DNA from: a virus
Lineage: Duplodnaviria > Heunggongvirae > Uroviricota > Caudoviricetes
DNA: 14,881 nt
Virus record (IMG/VR): IMGVR_UViG_2706794687_000017
Strand: one strand, 5' to 3'
In this document: positions 1 through 14,615 of the stretch, piece by piece
How positions within the stretch are numbered: the stretch's first letter is position 1
How the letters are laid out: the number at the start of each line of letters is the position of its first letter
Position numbers and translations under genes: made by a program
Notes under the pieces: model-generated
Told to the model about the DNA's origin: nothing
The model's database searches: none
Seen by the model: only the letters and a program-made list of their open reading frames with translations

Positions 1-1236
1 CTACGATAACCGCGCATTCAACATGGCTACCTGTTCGTCGTTCATGTCATCAATCCACATACCGTAAATTTCATACACCATCTGCGCAGTTTCATGCCCC
101 ATCTGGCTGGCTATAAACGCCGGGTTCGCTCCTGCCGTCAACAGCCAGCAGGCAAAAGTATGCCGCGTATGGTACGGATTACGGCGGCGAATACCAGCAC
201 GTTTTACTGCTGCATTCCATCTCGCACCCAAACTGCTTACCGAGTAATAAGGTTTCTGTTTTCCGTTACACACTCTGGGCATGAAAACAAAATGCAGTTT
301 TTGCTTTTCGGTTCTGCCGTACTCCCGATGATAAAAAGTGATTTCGCTTTTGCGATGATGCCCGGTCAGTTTGTATTGCTCCTTCAGTGCTTCAAGAGCA
401 GGCTGCAGTAGTGTTACCGTCCGGATCCCCGCATTTGTTTTTGGGGGACCGAACATATCCAGTATCGTCAGGTTTCTTCTGACATTCACAACTCCCTTCT
501 CGAAATCCACATCCTCCCACGCCAGAGCAGCCAGTTCCCCGTGACGAAGCCCGGAGTATACGGCAAATTTCCACAAGTTCTGGCTCTGTCCTTTTTCACT
601 TTCCATTAATGCATTGAATTCTGTTTTAGATAACGGGTCAGGCTTTATTCTGTTTCTCTGTAATTTCTTTACTCCTTCAAATGGTTTGGTTGATATAAAT
701 CCCGACTGATACGCAAAACGTAACAACGAACAGAGCAGGGCGATATAGTTATCAACTGTGCGCACGGTTCTTCCTTTTTTGTTGGATCTTGGATTATCCA
801 GGTAAAGCGTTTCTCCATGCAGCAGTTCATTCCGGTAGTTTAAGATATCGCTATAACGAATATGCGATATCGGAGTACTCTCACAAATTATTATCCTGAG
901 TGTTTTTAATTGTGATTTCGTTTTCTTCATTGTGTTTGTTGTTAACTCTGTTTCTTTAATTTTTGTCCAGATATCACAAAGCTCCCCGAACGTTTTTATG
1001 ACCCTCGTTGTCACCATTTTTGCCCCAGTGCTGGACTGGGGAAAACGTCTTAAATACTCAAACTCACCGGAATTGATTTCATGAACTATCAACGCTCTTA
1101 AATTCCCGGCTTTTTTAATGTTACTGTTAGTAACCTCCCAGCCTTTCAATGTTTCCCGACATCGTTTTCCTCGAAACATGAACCAGATGCGAATGTATTT
1201 ACCTCGAATCTCGACACCTGTTGGTAATTTAGACAT
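1..1236 (-). CDS. intR: Tyrosine-type phage integrase (Rac prophage IntR-like), 411 aa
   Basis: ATG at 1236 (rc of cat 1234-1236), TAG stop at rc of 1-3. Protein begins MSKLPTGVEIRGKYIRIWFMFRGKRCRETLKGW, which I recall as IntR. C-terminal region contains the R...H..R...Y-type recombinase residues (HTRHTFACWLL). Confidence 0.93.
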   Translation of the reverse strand: MSKLPTGVEIRGKYIRIWFMFRGKRCRETLKGWEVTNSNIKKAGNLRALIVHEINSGEFEYLRRFPQSSTGAKMVTTRVIKTFGELCDIWTKIKETELTTNTMKKTKSQLKTLRIIICESTPISHIRYSDILNYRNELLHGETLYLDNPRSNKKGRTVRTVDNYIALLCSLLRFAYQSGFISTKPFEGVKKLQRNRIKPDPLSKTEFNALMESEKGQSQNLWKFAVYSGLRHGELAALAWEDVDFEKGVVNVRRNLTILDMFGPPKTNAGIRTVTLLQPALEALKEQYKLTGHHRKSEITFYHREYGRTEKQKLHFVFMPRVCNGKQKPYYSVSSLGARWNAAVKRAGIRRRNPYHTRHTFACWLLTAGANPAFIASQMGHETAQMVYEIYGMWIDDMNDEQVAMLNARLS

Positions 1237-1237
1237 A

Positions 1238-1423
1238 TCATGAGTCTTTGATAAACTGATTTATCTTTGGATAGTTATACCAGATAATCCCTCGCTTACT
1301 GTCTGGCTTCCCTAAAGGAGATACTCGTTTGAAGTGGAAGCCTTCCACCCAACAGTTCTGGCGGTATGCTTCAATTTGTCTGGCCCCCAGACCAGTGCGA
1401 AGCATCAGGCCGTATTCAACCAT
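1238..1423 (-). CDS. ydaQ: Excisionase-like small protein at the Rac ydaQ position; 5' end may lie in the masked block
   Basis: Sits immediately upstream of int on the same strand; its TGA stop is 1 nt from the int ATG. The reading frame stays open upstream of the ATG at 1423 into the N run, so the true start is uncertain. Assignment rests on position and size, not on a recognised motif. Confidence 0.55.
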
Positions 1424-1740
1424 CCACTCTTCATTAAAGNNNNNNNNNNNNNNNNNNNNNNNNNNNNNNNNNNNNNNNNNNNNNNNNNNNNNNNNNNNNN
1501 NNNNNNNNNNNNNNNNNNNNNNNNNNNNNNNNNNNNNNNNNNNNNNNNNNNNNNNNNNNNNNNNNNNNNNNNNNNNNNNNNNNNNNNNNNNNNNNNNNNN
1601 NNNNNNNNNNNNNNNNNNNNNNNNNNNNNNNNNNNNNNNNNNNNNNNNNNNNNNNNNNNNNNNNNNNNNNNNNNNNNNNNNNNNNNNNNNNNNNNNNNNN
1701 NNNNNNNNNNNNNNNNNNNNNNNNNNNNNNNNNNNNNNNN

Positions 1741-1797
1741 TGTCCAGTTAGTAGGAGTGCCACCTTCCTTTTCAATAGTGGCGGTAATTTTATACAT
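1741..1797 (-). CDS. ydaC: YdaC-like protein, N-terminal part only (MYKITATIEKEGGTPTNWT...); the rest lies in masked block 1440-1740
   Basis: ATG at 1797 overlaps the ralR stop (minus-strand ATGTATAA junction). The ORF-track extension upstream to 1869 (MVEVKK...) overlaps ralR and is unlikely to be real. The 3' end cannot be seen. Confidence 0.5.
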
Positions 1798-1984
1798 GAA
1801 CACCTCCATTATTATTTCCAGTGGTTCGTTTATTTCATCGTTCGAGTGCTTCTTTTTCACTTCCACCATAACCGGTTCGGGATTCGCATCCGTTACACTT
1901 CGCTCGGTAATATCCTGAAATGGCTTTCACCGTTACTGATGGACAACCACAAAATGGACATGGTTTAACATTGTCATATCTCAT
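1790..1984 (-). CDS. ralR: Restriction alleviation protein RalR/Lar, 64 aa
   Basis: Hand translation of the minus strand from ATG at 1984: MRYDNVKPCPFCGCPSVTVKAISGYYRAKCNGCESRTGYGGSEKEALERWNKRTTGNNNGGVHV, then TAA. Matches my recollection of Rac Lar. Too short (under 60 aa cutoff) to appear in the ORF track. Confidence 0.85.
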
Positions 1985-2012
1985 AATTTTTCTCATAAAA
2001 ATATTTCAAGTT

Positions 2013-2031
2013 GGCGGTGCATTACACCGCC
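2013..2031. repeat. Perfect 7-bp inverted repeat with 5-nt loop (GGCGGTG-CATTA-CACCGCC) between recT and ralR
   Basis: Read directly from the sequence. On the minus strand it is followed by an A/T-rich stretch. Possible intra-operon attenuator or RNA-processing hairpin. Confidence 0.5.
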
Positions 2032-2039
2032 AGGCTGAA

Positions 2040-2849
2040 TTATTCCTCTGAATTATCGATTACACTGTATTCCCCGGTTAATACAGAGGAATCTGCAGGA
2101 TCGATTGTCAGTGGTTCCTTTTCATCCATTGATACTGCACGCTGGATCTCAATTGATACGGGCAGATATTTGAACAGGCGACGAATAGCCGTTTTCTTTG
2201 CCATTTCTTCCCAGTGAGTTACCCACGGCCCGTTATTACCAGCTTTACTCTGGCTGCGCACCAGCTCAATCTGTTTGCGCGTCATAACTTCAAACTGAGT
2301 ACCTCCGTCTTTCAGTCTTGCGACAGCATAGACGTGGGTAACAGGGGCATCTTCGTTTTCTCCTGGGCGGTGTATTAACTTTTCATCAAGGCCAAATTCG
2401 AAATTAAACTCGTCACCTTCACGGACAACACGGGCTGACAGGCTGGCGATTTGACCTGAACGGCGAGCCAGATCAATCATGCCGCGATAGCCAATGATTA
2501 GCTGAACGTTTTTTTTACCGCTCTTTTCGTTTTTATTACCAAAAGGCAGTAAATATGCATGACCGAGGGCGCTACCGGGCTCAAGTCCGAGCTGTGAACA
2601 CTGTACGATTGCACTGACAAAACTCATAGTGTCACAGTTTCCTAACGCCGGAACTTTACGAATTTCTGTGGTGGCGATACGGATCATACGTTCAGCCGTC
2701 ATATGGCGTGGAAGAGCTGCTGCCAGTTGCTCTTTCATTGATGGCTGGTTAATAAAACTAATCACGTCGTTATTTTTAATTGCTGCTGGTGCACGGTTTC
2801 CCTGAGTTTTTTGCAGATCGGCTTTTGCGATTGGTGGTTGCTTAGTCAT
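2040..2849 (-). CDS. recT: RecT single-strand annealing recombinase, 269 aa
   Basis: Protein from ATG at 2849 begins [35 protein letters not shown], recognised as RecT. The ORF-track start at 2906 is an upstream extension. The start overlaps the recE stop by 8 nt. Confidence 0.93.
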
Positions 2850-5463
2850 TTGCATATTCCTTAGCCCAGCGGGGCAGTGATAACGTCTTAATAGCTGGCC
2901 ATTCATCGGTATTGAGGCAGTCAGCCAGGGTTCGCAGATTGCGGTGATATTCCAGCTGACCTGCCAGTTTTGCTTCTTCGCCCATCATGAAAATTTCAAC
3001 CGGATAACGTCCGCATTCAATAGTTGTGCTGGCAACCAGAAAAACGAAAGTTGGCTGCACTCCAAACTGTGCTTCATAACCGTCACTGTAGAATGCATCC
3101 TGAACGTGATAGCGGTAGTCGTAATAAGCGGTTTTGAATCGTTGAATATCCGCCGTAGTTTTCACGTCCATGATCCAGTGAAATTCAGGGATAATTTTGT
3201 CCGGACGGCACCGACACAAAATTGCTGTTTCAGGATCTTCCCAGTAAATTGATGATTCAGCGTGTCCGGCGCTTTCAACAAGCCATTGCCCCAGCGGCAA
3301 AGCCATAACGCTCTGATACATGAGTTCAATTTTCCGGCCTTCTTCGGCAGTGATAACCGTTTTTCCTGTGCTTGCGCATTCCCTCAGAAACGCTTTCTCT
3401 TCTTCTTTTCCGGAGTTTGTCCGGCGGTTAAATTCAGGTGCTACGATAAAGCGGTTACTGAATTCTTCCGGCTCAAGTACCCGGCAGTGGAAAGCGGTTC
3501 CTAAATCGAGCGTTTTTGTCTTTGTGGTGTCCACGGGGGCATTTTTACGCCACAAATACAGTGCCGGAGTATCAGCAATGTCATCGAGCTGAGACTTACT
3601 GACACCGGGACCCGCGTGGTAATTCTCATTCGAAATTCCGTAATAAATACCTGGCTCTATGTCTTCTACGATTACGGGATCTGCGACTTCGCCAGTTTCA
3701 TCACTGCAATCGCGATGCGGATCGCTGCCAGCATTCTCATTGTGCNNNNNNNNNNNNNNNNNNNNNNNNNNNNNNNNNNNNNNNNNNNNNNNNNNNNNNN
3801 NNNNNNNNNNNNNNNNNNNNNNNNNNNNNNNNNNNNNNNNNNNNNNNNNNNNNNNNNNNNNNNNNNNNNNNNNNNNNNNNNNNNNNNNNNNNNNNNNNNN
3901 NNNNNNNNNNNNNNNNNNNNNNNNNNNNNNNNNNNNNNNNNNNNNNNNNNNNNNNNNNNNNNNNNNNNNNNNNNNNNNNNNNNNNNNNNNNNNNNNNNNN
4001 NNNNNNNNNNNNNNNNNNNNNCCCTTTACCCATTTCGGATCGTTCGGGTCGCTAATTCCGTCAACAAATTCACCACGTGATGCAGCAAGCAATTTATCGG
4101 CATCGACAGGATTTTTTGATGGAATGTTTTTCCGGGCTTCATGGAGTTCTGCCCGCAGTTCCTGATATTTCGCATCAACAGAATTTACCTGTGACTGAGC
4201 ATCCAGCGGCTGCGTGTCCTGATGATGTTCAGTTGCGTCCGGTTCCATTGTTTCAGCCTCTCCCTGTTCAACTGCCGTTGTTCCAGATGGTTGCGGTTTT
4301 TCTTCATCATCCTGTTTTCCTTCTTCTGTTACTCGCTGCGGCATCGGGGCAGAGGAGCGACCGCAGGCAATATCCACGATTTCCGGATCAGGGTTGGCAT
4401 GATCGGTTTCAGTCAGTACTTTGTTCAGATATTCAGTGACGTGCGCGGGGATGACCTCGATCCCAATTGGTGCTTCTTTTACGGACGCAACCACGATGGC
4501 GCGGGAATAATCCAGCCCGCCAGGCATGGTGATGAATTTGTCGCGGAAAACAGAAAAGGGCGGTTTATTTTCAGCGATAATTTCCTCAATGCGTTTAGCG
4601 TGTGCCGGATGAAGGTTATAGATGTCCAGATCCATTGAACGGGCCAGTACGCCAGTGGCTACGTCCCGCGCCAGTGACGTCAGATCGTGTACGAAACCTT
4701 CGCCGCGATCGGTGAGGTTTCCGCCGCCAGCATTAGCACCGGAAGCCGTGCGAGTGATGTGTGAAACACGATTACCCTTCATCCACTCTTTTGTCAGCAG
4801 TCCTCGATCGGTGTAGTCAGCGTTCAGGTATGCTTCGAAAAAAGCAGTTATCAGTCCCAGGTTTGAATTACCAGGATTAGGGAAAACTTTGTCAGTGTCA
4901 CGAACCAGTTTGTGGAGTTCGCGAATTTCCAGCGGGTCGAGCAGGCTGGTTTTGTGGGAAACAGCCAGGGCAGTAACAGCCGGTAGTTCTTCAGCCCGAG
5001 CAATGTGTAATGCCTGGAGTCCGTCGCGTGAAACGTGCGTTACCGGTTTTTCGCTGCCGTGTTGAGCAAGCCAACGAATGGGCAGTTCCTGGCCAGAAAT
5101 TGGGAGTAGCATATTCTCCTCAATCTCAGTCATGTCTTCGCCGTTGACGTTGGTATTGCCTTGATAGTGAGCGTTGTCTGGTGCTGCTCCCGGTTTTAGT
5201 TCCCATGTCATGGAGTCTTTGCTGAGTTGATAGCGTTCACTCCAGGTAAAATCGATCTCACCTTCAGCGGGCAGGTCATTAACGACAGGAAAATTCGTGG
5301 CAACAGCTTTAAAATAGCTGCTCAGTTTTTTACCTGACTTAACGATCAGGTAGTCCAGAGTGGCACAGGTCGATTCAAAATCGTTGCTTGCCCACAGGAC
5401 GACGTCAGGTTCACCGGATGATTTTTTCGCTTTCCGTAACAGGAAGAGTGGTTTTGTGCTCAT
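2842..5463 (-). CDS. recE: RecE exonuclease VIII, 873 aa; internal bases 3746-4021 are masked
   Basis: ATG at 5463. N-terminus [41 protein letters not shown] and C-terminus ...[13 protein letters not shown] are recognised as RecE. The frame is continuous across the 276-nt mask (a multiple of 3). Confidence 0.93.
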
Positions 5464-7236: not shown

Positions 7237-7534
7237 CTNNNNNNNNNNNNNNNNNNNNNNNNNNNNNNNNNNNNNNNNNNNNNNNNNNNNNNNNNNNNNN
7301 NNNNNNNNNNNNNNNNNNNNNNNNNNNNNNNNNNNNNNNNNNNNNNNNNNNNNNNNNNNNNNNNNNNNNNNNNNNNNNNNNNNNNNNNNNNNNNNNNNNN
7401 NNNNNNNNNNNNNNNNNNNNNNNNNNNNNNNNNNNNNNNNNNNNNNNNNNNNNNNNNNNNNNNNNNNNNNNNNNNNNNNNNNNNNNNNNNNNNNNNNNNN
7501 NNNNNNNNNNNNNNNNNNNNNNNNNNNNNNNNNN

Positions 7535-7580
7535 TACCGCAACAATCCATCAAATACTGAACTACTTCGTAATGCACCAT
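7535..7580 (-). CDS. 5' end of an unidentified small prophage gene (MVHYEVVQYLMDCCG...) running into masked block 7239-7534; ydaF/ydaG neighbourhood
   Basis: ATG at 7580 (rc of cat 7578-7580) preceded by a strong SD, AAGGGGAG (rc of 7588-7595), at 7-nt spacing. The rest is masked. Confidence 0.4.
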
Positions 7581-7783: not shown

Positions 7784-8284
7784 CTATAAGTACATTTTGT
7801 GTGTAAAAAAATGAGATGGGATAAAGTGAAGCACAAACCCGGAGGGGGACGCTANNNNNNNNNNNNNNNNNNNNNNNNNNNNNNNNNNNNNNNNNNNNNN
7901 NNNNNNNNNNNNNNNNNNNNNNNNNNNNNNNNNNNNNNNNNNNNNNNNNNNNNNNNNNNNNNNNNNNNNNNNNNNNNNNNNNNNNNNNNNNNNNNNNNNN
8001 NNNNNNNNNNNNNNNNNNNNNNNNNNNNNNNNNNNNNNNNNNNNNNNNNNNNNNNNNNNNNNNNNNNNNNNNNNNNNNNNNNNNNNNNNNNNNNNNNNNN
8101 NNNNNNNNNNNNNNTCTCGGCGAGGAATTGTTTCGCCATTAAACCATTTGCTAACCGCTTTTGGTGTTAATTTCATTCGACGGGCAATTTCTGCCTGCCT
8201 TCCATGTTGTTCATAACCAGCGTTTTCACAGGCTAGCGCAAGCCTACTGGCGAACTCTTTACGCGCTTTATCTTCATGAACCAT
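7784..8284 (-). CDS. racR: RacR-like prophage repressor (XRE-family HTH); bases 7855-8114 masked, 3' end uncertain
   Basis: N-terminus MVHEDKARKEFASRLALACENAGYEQHGRQAEIARRMKLTPKAVSKWFNGETIP has a helix-turn-helix signature and is divergent from the cro-like ydaS. No SD precedes the ATG at 8284, so the transcript may be leaderless. The end coordinate assumes frame continuity across the mask. Confidence 0.6.
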   Translation of the reverse strand: MVHEDKARKEFASRLALACENAGYEQHGRQAEIARRMKLTPKAVSKWFNGETIPRRXXXXXXXXXXXXXXXXXXXXXXXXXXXXXXXXXXXXXXXXXXXXXXXXXXXXXXXXXXXXXXXXXXXXXXXXXXXXXXXXXXXXXXXXASPSGFVLHFIPSHFFTHKMYL

Positions 8285-11444: not shown

Positions 11445-11459
11445 TTGCCGGAGGCGCTT

Positions 11460-11876
11460 ATGGCAAAAGTTTTTACACAGGAAGAGCGTGAAAAAATTAA
11501 GGAGCAGGTTGTTGAGTTGGTACGCCAGAGTGGGCGCGAGACGTTAAGGCAACTGGAGGCCAAGACAGGTGCGACAAGATATCTGATGAGCATTCTTGCC
11601 AGAGAGTTGGTTGCCAGTGGCGATGTATACAACTCTGGCTATGGGTTATTCCCGTCTGAACAGGCTCGTAAGGATTGGAAAAACGCCCGCAAAAAACTAT
11701 CCAGGGCAAAGGTGAAAAAAACGGTTGTGGTTGATCCTGACCTTATCTGGTCATTACCAGACGGAGAAATACGCCGCTATGACAGGCGTCAGAACATAAT
11801 CTGTCGCGAGTGCCGGAAGAGTGAAGTTATGAAACGTGTACTGGCATTTTATCAAGGAAATCTTCGGTATTTATAG
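11460..11876 (+). CDS. Hypothetical prophage protein, 138 aa, last conventional gene before the AT-rich cargo
   Basis: First ATG at 11460 preceded by GGAGG (11451-11455). The ORF-track start at 11445 is a TTG. Protein MAKVFTQEEREKIKEQVVELVRQSGRETLRQLEAKTGATRYLMSILAREL is not recognised. Confidence 0.72.
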   Translation: MAKVFTQEEREKIKEQVVELVRQSGRETLRQLEAKTGATRYLMSILARELVASGDVYNSGYGLFPSEQARKDWKNARKKLSRAKVKKTVVVDPDLIWSLPDGEIRRYDRRQNIICRECRKSEVMKRVLAFYQGNLRYL

Positions 11877-12014
11877 ACGTTACTAGATCAAAGAGCATTA
11901 GTTCATATGTAAATTGACATTTTTCTGGCACAGGGGAGAGCTAGCGTGGTTGTCCGCTTTGTGCCAATAGCGGACATTGCTGGCTCATGGTATGTTAGTT
12001 TAAGGAGGCAGGTT

Positions 12015-13037
12015 ATGCCCTGTATTTCGCTGTGGTATAATAGTTGCGCAATTGATACAAGGGAGCGTTACATCGTGAAAATTGTTTTCGAGGTTAATGG
12101 AAAGAAAGTTCCACTAAAATCTTTAAAATACATAAGCAAAAAAGATCAACTCGAAGTAATGAAAAACTGGTTCTTTGAAAACTTTGAAGATCCGGCAAAT
12201 GCTTGTCCGTATGAAAGTAGAGAAGGTGGCTATGCTTACATATATGGCGGGCCGTATGATGCGAGCGAAGAACTACAATCCATCTTCGGTCAATATGTTA
12301 AATCTGAGTATATTGAGGAATTAGTAGATGAATTACAAACACAATGTTTTGACTGGTCTGGAAACTCAAATAATATAGATGATTGGTACGATGATGATAT
12401 CTACGACGCTGTAACGTCTTCCGGTAATCCGTATTTAAAATTCATTGATAATATCGATAAAATAAAAAAACTTGCAAAAGATAAAACTGAACAACAGCAA
12501 AAAAACCACTTGCTTAGTTTGCTCTACACGAATGTTATTACAGCTTTGGAAACGCTTTATGTTGAGCTATTCATTAATTCTATAGAGAAAGATGATGTCT
12601 ACATAGCCAATTGTATAGAAAAAGGTAAGACTGAATTTAAAGTAAGCAAAGATATTGCTGCGTTGCCTTTCAAGGGTGAACCCATCGAGAAAATTAGGGG
12701 AGAGCTAATCAGGTCAATCAAGGAACACTTGATCAGTGCAAGCTGGCATAGCACTAAAAAGGTAATCGACCGCTATGAAGCTACATTCGATATAAAAGTA
12801 CAAAAAGACTGTCCGATAGAAGCTATTGAATTGGCAACCCTCAATCGAAATCACTTAGTGCATCGTGGTGGAAAGGATAAAGAAGGGAACCTCGTAGTGA
12901 TTACAGACCAGGATCTTGAAACGCTGATTGAAAATGCATCGAACCTGGCAATTATGCTCTACAACAGTTTAAATGTAGCAACGAATAAAACCACCATTTT
13001 GCAACCAGATGACAAACCGTTCATTCATGAATTTTAA
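12015..13037 (+). CDS. Cargo gene A: uncharacterised AT-rich protein (about 340 aa; 320 aa if started at GTG 12075) with a C-terminal R-x4-H HEPN-like motif
   Basis: Long ORF. ATG at 12015 is preceded by AAGGAGG (12002-12008) at 6-nt spacing. Codon usage is strongly AT-biased, unlike the flanking prophage genes. Motif NRNHLVHRGG is encoded at about 12843-12872. No family recognised. Confidence 0.8.
   Translation: MPCISLWYNSCAIDTRERYIVKIVFEVNGKKVPLKSLKYISKKDQLEVMKNWFFENFEDPANACPYESREGGYAYIYGGPYDASEELQSIFGQYVKSEYIEELVDELQTQCFDWSGNSNNIDDWYDDDIYDAVTSSGNPYLKFIDNIDKIKKLAKDKTEQQQKNHLLSLLYTNVITALETLYVELFINSIEKDDVYIANCIEKGKTEFKVSKDIAALPFKGEPIEKIRGELIRSIKEHLISASWHSTKKVIDRYEATFDIKVQKDCPIEAIELATLNRNHLVHRGGKDKEGNLVVITDQDLETLIENASNLAIMLYNSLNVATNKTTILQPDDKPFIHEF
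12033..12041 (+). promoter_or_regulatory. Extended -10 element TGgTATAAT (possible promoter for the cargo operon if translation starts at GTG 12075)
   Basis: TG at 12033-12034 and TATAAT at 12036-12041, followed by GGGAG (12061-12065) and an in-frame GTG at 12075. The -35 region is weak (TTATGC). Conflicts with the ATG 12015 start, which has a textbook SD. Confidence 0.3.
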
Positions 13038-13052
13038 TAGCGCAGGTCATAC

Positions 13053-14054
13053 ATGGATATTCGCACACGAAAGACAAAATTTTTAGAGTCGTTAGATTCA
13101 ACTGAAGTGATACGCAAAGCAGTAAGTCTCGCTATAGATTGCATTATTGATAATCATAATAGTAATGAAGATACCCCCTTAGTTATTACCAGCTATGATG
13201 ATCTCTGTAGAATCCAGGTGCTAAATTATGTACAGGAGTTTTGCGAAGCTGCATTCCCTGATATGGATGAATATTACTTTAGTCCTAACATACTTCGCAT
13301 CAACGGCAAGACTAGTGAAGAAGCTTGTATTAACTTAATTAAACTCTTAAGAAGTACAAAAGGCATGCTATTCTGGTCCGATGCCCCATCGTGGTTCGCT
13401 AGCCTCCCCGACGGATTATTCCATGTTGTTAACATTGATCAAAAAATCGTTACTCGCGGCCTTAATAAGAAAAACTCTAAGCCGACAATAATCAATAAAG
13501 ATTACAGTGTAGATACACTACTATCAGAGCTATTTTTGAATGGCGCACACATGGAGCAACCCAACGTACACAACGTTTCTGAGGGAAACATGAAGTTCTA
13601 TGATGAATGCCATGCTGGATTAATCAGACCAATACCCGCTCCAATAGGCGCGTCATACGATGAAGAGATCACAATTAATTCTCCAGATTGGCAAAAGCTC
13701 GCGTGTGTAGCTTTACGCCGCTATCAGTCGAAGGAATGTCATGACGGAATGCAATGGGATACAACCGATCATGGTTGGACTGATGTAATCGCGTATCCAT
13801 TCGTCGAAGAAATACAATCAATGGATAATAGTGGTTATCGACAATGTTTAGTTGGGCTGGTCACAATAAACAATTCAAATGCAAATTCTCCGTACCTATC
13901 TACCGTTTGGATACATCCATTTTATCGCAGGAGAGGGTTATTAAGTAAGTTATGGCCAAAATTACAAGAGTTATATGGAAGTAACTTCGAAATTGAGCGA
14001 CCTAATGAAAATATGAAAGCATTTCTGAAAAGTGCGAAACACGCAGATTACTAA
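13053..14054 (+). CDS. Cargo gene B: uncharacterised AT-rich protein, 333 aa, with a C-terminal GNAT-like (acetyltransferase motif A-like) segment
   Basis: ATG at 13053, 15 bp after the gene A stop (operon arrangement), TAA at 14052-14054. C-terminal CLVGLVTINN...VWIHPFYRRRGLLSKLWPKLQELYG resembles GNAT beta4/motif A (compare the VHPEYRGRGIG pattern). The N-terminal 190 aa or so are unrecognised. Confidence 0.85.
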   Translation: MDIRTRKTKFLESLDSTEVIRKAVSLAIDCIIDNHNSNEDTPLVITSYDDLCRIQVLNYVQEFCEAAFPDMDEYYFSPNILRINGKTSEEACINLIKLLRSTKGMLFWSDAPSWFASLPDGLFHVVNIDQKIVTRGLNKKNSKPTIINKDYSVDTLLSELFLNGAHMEQPNVHNVSEGNMKFYDECHAGLIRPIPAPIGASYDEEITINSPDWQKLACVALRRYQSKECHDGMQWDTTDHGWTDVIAYPFVEEIQSMDNSGYRQCLVGLVTINNSNANSPYLSTVWIHPFYRRRGLLSKLWPKLQELYGSNFEIERPNENMKAFLKSAKHADY

Positions 14055-14615
14055 TTTATGAATCAGTCTGTGGAGTTAGGGTTGGTGTGAACAAGTAGGG
14101 TAAGAGCCTCAACGTGATGCTATGCCGACCTGCTCCCTGAGAATTCACACAGAAGGCTGCTAGCAATGTCTGCAGATCGCTCAAAGCGGACTAAAATGTT
14201 GGCTTGTTTCTGACTTAGAGCATTTAAGGAAGTGCTGGTGGTGACTGGTTGTTGTGTTCCATTTCTACAGAATAAAATCACAGAAACTATACCCAATAGT
14301 TGTATTGAATCACTGACGAGACAGCCTCATATTTATCAGGACTGGTGTGCGTCTAATACAGGGGGTTGTCGTGCTGGTTCTCAAATGTGCGCTGGCTATT
14401 GCGGCTGTAATGGCAATTTATTGTCTTGCTGTTGTTCTTATGGAGCGGCTTTCTGATTGATTACATACTGGCTAGAAAAAAGGTGTTACCTTGGTTTATC
14501 TTTGTCCGGCAAGGTGCGCTCATTAATCTTAAGTAAATTTATTGCTCAAGTATTCAGATTACTTCTTATGGTTGAAGTCTCCTGTCAATGTAGAACCAAT
14601 ATATTTACAAAAATG

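Follow-up and report, generated by a model that had tools for sequence, protein, structure and literature searches.

GNAT toxins of type II toxin-antitoxin modules (TacAT, AtaRT, KacAT, ItaRT) are basic, dimeric proteins of about 160-180 aa, and a small DUF1778/RHH antitoxin is encoded upstream. The TmcA/NAT10 RNA cytidine acetyltransferases combine a P-loop helicase domain with a GNAT domain. AcrVA5, a phage protein whose anti-defence gene is carried by mobile elements, is a minimal single-domain GNAT that acetylates Cas12a. HEPN nucleases, in turn, occur as single-protein defence effectors with N-terminal sensor domains, following the ApeA-type logic. In HepT-MntA (HEPN-MNT) type VII toxin-antitoxin systems, the partner of the HEPN toxin is a nucleotidyltransferase that AMPylates it (PMC13000451).

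The window analyzed here (the whole stretch of 14,881 nucleotides, IMG/VR record IMGVR_UViG_2706794687_000017) is a Rac-like lambdoid prophage of E. coli, inserted beside ttcA. It carried intR, xisR, recT, recE, kilR, sieB, repressor-like genes, ydaT, ydaU, a DnaC-like gene, DUF1627 and DUF977, and then two genes, A and B, whose products were both annotated merely as "hypothetical". The GC content of these two cargo genes was 35-41%, compared to 47-53% in the prophage backbone. Runs of N at about 1440-1750, 3740-4030, 7240-7540 and 7860-8110 interrupted recE and several early-region ORFs (translated as X); they lowered the apparent GC in the composition profile, which there reflects masked sequence and not biology. 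The A-B region was present, identical or near-identical, in 205 of 5426 complete E. coli genomes (~4%), including the type strain, and the pair was also found on elements of Serratia, Aeromonas, Citrobacter, Klebsiella and Providencia.

Gene B encodes a divergent GNAT-fold protein

The ORF of gene B (13053-14054, + strand) encodes 333 aa, and its translation contains ...QCLVGLVTINNSNANSPYLSTVWIHPFYRRRGLLSKLWPKLQELYG... The following features were assigned within it.

13053..13622, + strand: N-terminal domain of B, residues 1-190; family-specific α/β, distantly P-loop-NTPase-like, no Walker A
13623..14054, + strand: GNAT-fold domain of B, residues about 191-333, and the stop codon; by DSSP it ends after α4, with no β6/β7
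13896..13955, + strand: motif A region of B, β4 (LSTVWIH) followed by PFYRRRGLLSKLW at the start of α3

Gene B is real, as follows from its 66 clusters of homologues, all gammaproteobacterial, and from a dN/dS of 0.25-0.42 overall; the value between two copies lacking A was 0.04, with few substitutions. The sources of a few homologues name them "GNAT family N-acetyltransferase", and precomputed PF00583 matches exist for two. The Pfam Acetyltransf_1 profile (PF00583) aligned through its positions 42-91 with residues 264-311 of B (E=9e-4). The score of the window protein, 19.9 bits, was below the gathering cut-off of 20.7, yet the search for an Acetyltransf family was positive across the B family, as 15 of its 39 members matched at E≤0.01 (best 6e-6). 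The GNAT match of B is more than chance.

The earlier note had recognized a GNAT motif A in B, and its core, H288-P-F-Y-R292-R-R-G295, is indeed encoded at 13914-13937 (R292 by 13926-13928, G295 by 13935-13937). The range given there, 13866-13976, corresponds to codons 272-308 and encloses this core, but the peptide quoted with it, C265-G309, really spans 13845-13979, and the start was thus set 21 nt late. Similarly, the GNAT domain, placed in the C-terminal third, is present but larger, with about 130-140 aa or roughly the C-terminal 40% of the protein. Aligned by eye, IHPFYRRRGLL of B resembles the common GNAT motif-A form VHPxYRGKGIG. In the alignment of 39 B sequences, C265, G268, L282, T284, W286, H288, P289, R292, Y308, G309, P317, M321 and F324 were invariant, and N318 of motif B was conserved in at least 90% of the members. 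Conservation of the motif residues therefore held for L282, T284, W286, H288, P289 and R292, but only partly for the glycines of Q/RxxGxG/A. In the window protein, the pyrophosphate loop Q/R-x-x-G-x-G/A reads R292-R-R-G295-L-L297; G295 is kept in about three quarters of the 39 members and is R, K or Q in the others, and the last G/A position is always L or M. The α4 position that is usually Tyr in GNATs is occupied by L, M, I or V in the B family.

The GNAT half is the better conserved part of B, with a mean column identity of 65% vs 50% for the N-terminal domain, and its dN was the lower of the two in most pairs. Helix α1 is basic and highly conserved (WQKxACVALRRYQxKEC). The GNAT domain is near-neutral (pI about 6), which provides no positive hint on the substrate; pI and charge of whole A and B, both acidic, were equally uninformative.

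The AlphaFold2 model of B, calculated from the 39-sequence alignment (pLDDT 90.1, pTM 0.82), contained the GNAT fold that the earlier note had anticipated. DSSP assigned α1 to residues 212-229, α2 to 239-242, β2 to 245-255, β3 to 262-273, β4 to 281-287, α3 to 289-308, β5 to 313-314 and α4 to 319-327, with the chain ending at 333. The model has the mixed α/β core of GNATs (order β1-α1-α2-β2-β3-β4-α3-β5-α4-β6[-β7]) without the usual β6/β7, and IHPFYRRRGLL sits exactly at the β4-α3 junction. The best structural matches were AAC(3)-XIa (9mgt), thialysine/diamine and polyamine acetyltransferases; Foldseek against viral predicted structures returned GNATs and no full-length match. B is a genuine, divergent member of the GNAT (acyl-CoA N-acyltransferase) fold superfamily and retains most of the CoA-binding signature along with the fold. 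Residues C265, H288, R292, Y308 and N318 cluster on the β3-β4-α3-β5 core, as would be fitting for either an active site or a binding site. Since β6/β7 are missing, catalytic competence is only plausible, and B could be a non-catalytic GNAT.

The N-terminal region of about 190 aa, which the earlier note could not recognize, likewise matched nothing in Pfam, NCBIfam or PADLOC. Its profile found only 23 matches among 1.84e9 proteins; each of them shares the architecture of B or is a fragment, and none was a fusion to another effector. At the level of the whole protein, no component model of PADLOC-DB v2.0.0 matched B, and the matches to A were at chance level (E≥0.011). NCBIfam gave chance-level matches to B only, with no resistance or metabolic family; PHROGs placed it in PHROG 16994, labelled "unknown function"; and tblastn against 50,697 deposited phage genomes found no match. 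PDB sequence searches with the full-length and GNAT-only profiles of B returned nothing meaningful, and the same was true for A. P0028 proved to be a DnaC-B deletion fusion from a decayed prophage and was set aside as uninformative.

We also observed a stand-alone relative of the GNAT domain, a 165-aa protein (WLHPFFRHRGHLAKVWPFLRQRYGDF...) encoded at 4935-5432 of L072, the Cupriavidus plasmid p352-2. It apparently ends directly after α4, is surrounded by HNH, P-loop and DUF4145 genes, and belongs to a very rare family of 5 clusters.

Gene A and its linkage to B

The following features define gene A and its junction with B.

12075..13037, + strand: gene A, 320 aa, HEPN_RES_NTD1 + RiboL-PSP-HEPN RNase; GTG start, with AGGGAG at 12060-12065, nine bases upstream
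12846-12863, + strand: Rx4H motif of A, R258-H263 (RNHLVH)
13038..13052, + strand: 15-bp A-B spacer (TAGCGCAGGTCATAC) with an AGG ribosome-binding-like triplet, near-constant in 25 loci

The same 320-aa protein was called by PGAP (WP_014639476). The HEPN-motif neighbor proposed for B proved to be just that: RNHLVH was invariant in 100 homologues, as were R, H, R and G of the longer R-x4-H-R-x-G motif. Of the aligned homologues, PF18870 (HEPN_RES_NTD1) matched 23/23 and PF18735 (RiboL-PSP-HEPN) 14/23; A of the window itself scored 22.2 bits for PF18870, below the cut-off of 27.4.

On sequence grounds, A and B are an operon with B distal. A was followed by B after a 14-15-bp spacer of near-constant sequence in 25 loci, over which identity fell from 100 to 86% for A and from 100 to 78% for B; even an A copy at 78% identity had a 331-aa gene 15 bp downstream. 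These loci included the Rac-like prophage, a Serratia locus beside a McrB-like gene, an Aeromonas relaxase island beside SIR2+cREC genes, and plasmids. Linkage this tight over 25 loci could reflect a real functional dependence.

Nevertheless, each gene was also found intact without the other. A was cleanly deleted (window ~12052-12973) in Rahnella (L005) and in a metagenome contig (L036), with the upstream region and B intact, and it was fragmented beside an intact B on a Providencia plasmid (L073). A has thus disappeared or decayed on at least two occasions, with purifying selection keeping B intact. In the opposite direction, A-like genes with 71-77% identity stood alone in satellite-like islands and chromosomal sites, without B or a recognized antitoxin. 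In E. coli MB56 (L075), an IS3-family element lies between A and B, and A is still intact; IS3-family elements (ISSen4, IS2) also lie upstream of A in this strain and in E. coli O78 strain 3 (L074). The sole case of a disrupted B with intact A was a metagenome contig (L043) with a single 1-nt indel. As B persists intact under purifying selection without A, it is not a toxin restrained by A, and we ruled out that model. The independence of the two genes leaves two live readings, namely self-sufficient modules in one operon, or a toxin A with B as its enzymatic neutralizer.

None of the B homologues at ≤62% identity had an A-like neighbor, and both domains were kept in them. Their neighbors were heterogeneous, and our search for a conserved partner found none; they were often conflict-related, including ThsA-like SIR2, PDC-S06/AAA_13, Mrr_cat, HerA-like and SUKH genes. 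In some cases, a ThsA-like SIR2, Mrr_cat nuclease or PDC-S06/AAA_13 (PrrC-like) gene followed 3' of B at 15-43 bp (L013 969-2483; the P0044 context; L054 6049-8313). Two unrelated contigs encoded a 273-aa Cys-rich protein with no family match 44-45 bp downstream of the B homologue (L012 7051-7872, L055 3199-4020). The two proteins are 77% identical to each other and may represent a second, different type of partner for the B GNAT family.

A palindrome-bounded cargo slot

The ends of nucleotide homology and a hairpin scan delimited the A-B operon as a discrete 2240-bp unit between two 24-bp palindromes.

11952..11975, strand not applicable: left palindrome L (GTCCGCTTTGTGCCAATAGCGGAC), where A-B homology starts; folds at -9.3 kcal/mol, z -2.8
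12033..12041, + strand: extended -10-like element TGGTATAAT, a candidate cassette-internal promoter (inferred); matched once in the window against a chance expectation of 0.09
14168..14191, strand not applicable: right boundary R (GTCTGCAGATCGCTCAAAGCGGAC), 24 bp; the window copy is a weak hairpin, z -0.24

Nucleotide homology of the window to other A-B loci started at 11951-11956, or at 12016 or 12052 in the most diverged loci, and stopped at 14128-14192 in most, slightly earlier in the two most diverged. L reads GTCCGCTTTGTGCCAANAGCGGAC, with the consensus GTCCGCTTTGTGCCANNAGCGGAC, and the R consensus is GTCCGCTNCTCGCTCAAAGCGGAC; over 34 cargo types, the R boundary consensus is gTCcGCTncTCGCTCAaAGCGGAC. 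Both palindromes share 7-bp arms, GTCCGCT...AGCGGAC. The element at 12033-12041 was conserved in A-B units and was kept in both loci with the clean deletion of A. A generic promoter/terminator scan returned no more sites than expected by chance.

The boundaries were not particular to A and B. The L palindrome was present in at least 120 viral contigs (loci L076-L195), only 13 of which had A-B. A closed L...R unit was found in 86 of these contigs. The units formed 34 length classes, from 472-5827 bp, and contained between one and six genes, oriented either way. Prophages and chromosomal arrays alike had these boundaries around other cargo, of at least 34 types. Both window flanks (11445-11951 on the left, 14192-14475 on the right) abutted the palindromes exactly in 58 IMG/VR contigs, which identifies a single prophage slot with swappable cargo. 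The slot, a cargo hot spot of Rac-like prophages, lies between the DUF977 gene and the downstream region. It is rich in defence genes, as its alternative cargo included PD-T7-1 (E=4e-157), AbiH with a 463-aa partner, PDC-S39 and a caspase-like protein. We also noted, by eye, GIY-YIG-like, NUDIX+HAD, MFS, GGDEF and α/β-hydrolase genes. Several alleles of the slot had no PADLOC match and are candidates for new systems.

Copies of the L palindrome also headed other cargo units, with boundary copies at 134-157, 3183-3206 and 6650-6673 of L039 and at 1532, 3834 and 5603 of L035. In L039, a Gabija-like pair (321-3126) headed by an L palindrome lies directly upstream of the A-B unit; its GajA-like protein has AAA_15/AAA_21 and an OLD-like TOPRIM, and its GajB-like protein is a UvrD helicase. 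In the vicinity are an IS110-family transposase and ychF, which suggests that L039 is a chromosomal array of such palindrome-bounded units.

Integron attC sites have the polarity 5'-RYYYAAC ... GTTRRRY-3', stand at the 3' end only, and belong to co-oriented cassettes. We rejected an attC identity of the boundary palindromes by eye only, as a palindrome stands at both ends, the flanking boxes read GTT...AAC and cargo occurs in either orientation. Rfam gave nothing significant in the cassette or the neighboring arrays, and the palindromes matched none of its families.

Just beyond the right boundary, we observed a cysteine-rich ORF of 74 codons (14232-14456, + strand) with 14 Cys (...CAGYCGCNGNLLSCCCSYGAAF). 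PGAP does not call it; other copies in E. coli retain it with a length of 74 or 96 codons, and two terminator-like hairpins overlap its 3' end.

Possible roles of the pair and its relation to known systems

We tentatively favor, at somewhat less than even confidence, that B transfers acyl groups as a self-sufficient module alongside A, within a probable anti-phage cassette. A would be the effector that cleaves RNA, under the control of its own N-terminal domain, and B a functionally self-sufficient, acetyl-CoA-dependent modifier. The conserved GNAT core of B would acylate a macromolecule, with a protein a likelier target than tRNA, and the more variable N-terminal domain would provide recognition of the target or trigger. 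B would work beside A and not be held in check by it. In favor of this proposal are the fold and the invariant motif core, the private N-terminal domain, the conserved operon, the persistence of each gene without the other, the low GC of the cargo, and the defence genes in the slot, in L039 and near distant B homologues. Several observations weigh against it: no named defence family matches A or B; the poorly kept motif-A glycines, the replaced α4 Tyr and the absent β6/β7 mean that B could be a non-catalytic GNAT; some cargo of the hot spot looks unrelated to defence (NUDIX+HAD, MFS, GGDEF and hydrolase genes, judged by eye); and the tight A-B linkage could point to a functional dependence.

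The operon, its conserved 15-bp spacer and the co-divergence of A and B would also fit a type VII-like toxin-antitoxin or abortive-infection pair, which we consider rather unlikely, though worth keeping in view. Here, A would be a constitutively dangerous HEPN RNase, consistent with its invariant catalytic residues, and B an enzymatic neutralizer acetylating A or its RNA target. By analogy with MntA AMPylating HepT, B might hold A inactive until acetyl-CoA or the activity of B drops during infection. The observed losses are those expected of a toxin and an antitoxin that is dispensable once orphaned: A is gone or broken in Rahnella, the metagenome contig and the Providencia plasmid while B is intact, and B was disrupted beside an intact A just once, by the 1-nt indel. 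Such a dependence of A on B is hard to reconcile with the A-like genes of 71-77% identity that live without B or a recognized antitoxin, with the B homologues below about 62% identity that keep both domains without A, and with A remaining intact in E. coli MB56 although an IS element parts it from B. The reverse assignment, in which B is a TacT/AtaT-like GNAT toxin acetylating aminoacyl-tRNA and A its antidote, draws on the GNAT fold and the mobile-element location, and we regard it as very improbable: purifying selection maintains an intact B in loci that have lost A or carry it in pieces, the locus has no DUF1778/RHH partner, B is twice the size of such toxins with a near-neutral rather than basic GNAT domain, and A is itself a conserved nuclease.

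Two further explanations concern the chemistry of B. It might be a pseudo-enzyme with a GNAT fold and no transfer, serving as a CoA/acetyl-CoA sensor or scaffold, in the manner of PanZ with PanD, and the main function would then lie in the N-terminal domain. The degenerate pyrophosphate-loop Gly, the L or M at the final G/A position, the missing canonical Tyr and β6/β7, and the score of the window protein below the Pfam gathering cut-off are all compatible with this. We nonetheless judge it distinctly unlikely, given that the GNAT half is the more conserved one (65% vs 50%), with lower dN in most pairs, and that C265, H288, R292, Y308 and N318 cluster on the core in a manner suiting an active or binding site. 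That B is instead an ordinary small-molecule N-acetyltransferase (for an antibiotic, polyamine or metabolite), a lysogenic-conversion moron with an accidental HEPN neighbor, appears quite improbable. Its best structural matches are to enzymes of this kind, the hot spot holds metabolic-looking cargo, and copies of B occur on clinical plasmids; yet a strict 15-bp operon with a HEPN RNase over 25 loci, distant homologues in defence islands, a private 190-aa domain and a highly conserved basic α1, both unusual for such GNATs, and the lack of any NCBIfam resistance or metabolic match all argue otherwise.

A bolder proposal, which we hold to be unlikely, sees in A-B a two-gene anti-phage system of a new kind: a GNAT carrying a private, sensor-like domain would regulate the HEPN RNase through acetylation or, as a second effector, would acetylate a protein of the phage or the host. 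The system would spread as a discrete unit, by an undescribed exchange of cargo between the 24-bp palindromes that bound it, both in Rac-like prophages and on other mobile elements. Either mechanism would make A-B the first of the enzyme-regulated HEPN systems to rely on acetylation. If active, the pair would extend the few chemistries used by prophage-borne defence or toxin modules to acetylation, and the GNAT would be a new type of partner for HEPN RNases. The palindrome-bounded Rac-like slot, with at least 34 alternative cargo units of which several are validated or candidate defence systems, is a ready list of candidates. The boundary palindromes and the slot raise a testable question of cargo exchange and may merit a study of their own.

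The earlier note had not recognized the arrangement, and PADLOC, NCBIfam and the literature gave nothing either; neither RefSeq accession was mentioned in the literature, which also contained no HEPN+GNAT defence pair. Compared with the GNAT superfamily (9mgt, 8yv7/2bei, α-tubulin acetyltransferase 8y9f), B has 9-19% identity, L or M as the last motif-A G/A, no β6/β7 and a private 190-aa N-terminal domain. With the GNAT-RHH type II modules it shares the GNAT fold, the mobile element and the two-gene operon. B is nevertheless, as the earlier note had held, no small GNAT toxin with a small antitoxin: it has 333 aa, is near-neutral, follows a 320-aa HEPN RNase with no RHH/DUF1778 protein, and is viable without its partner. 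The order of a P-loop-like α/β domain and a GNAT domain recalls TmcA/NAT10. Like AcrVA5, which acts on a protein in the phage-host conflict, B is a GNAT of a mobile element; unlike it, B has two domains and lies among defence genes, and we found no similarity beyond the fold.

On the side of A, its architecture is exactly the HEPN_RES_NTD1 + RiboL-PSP-HEPN of the single-protein HEPN nucleases, and its relatives also occur as lone cargo; the A clade differs in its co-transcribed B, and no PADLOC model, ApeA included, matches A. HepT-MntA differs in that its partner is an AMPylating nucleotidyltransferase (PMC13000451) and B has a GNAT fold, and in that A has the extra HEPN_RES_NTD1 domain and close relatives that stand alone. 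It nevertheless offers a HEPN RNase gene next to the gene of a group-transfer enzyme, a template for a B that might modify A, and the Rx4-6H motif of its toxin is matched by RNHLVH of A.
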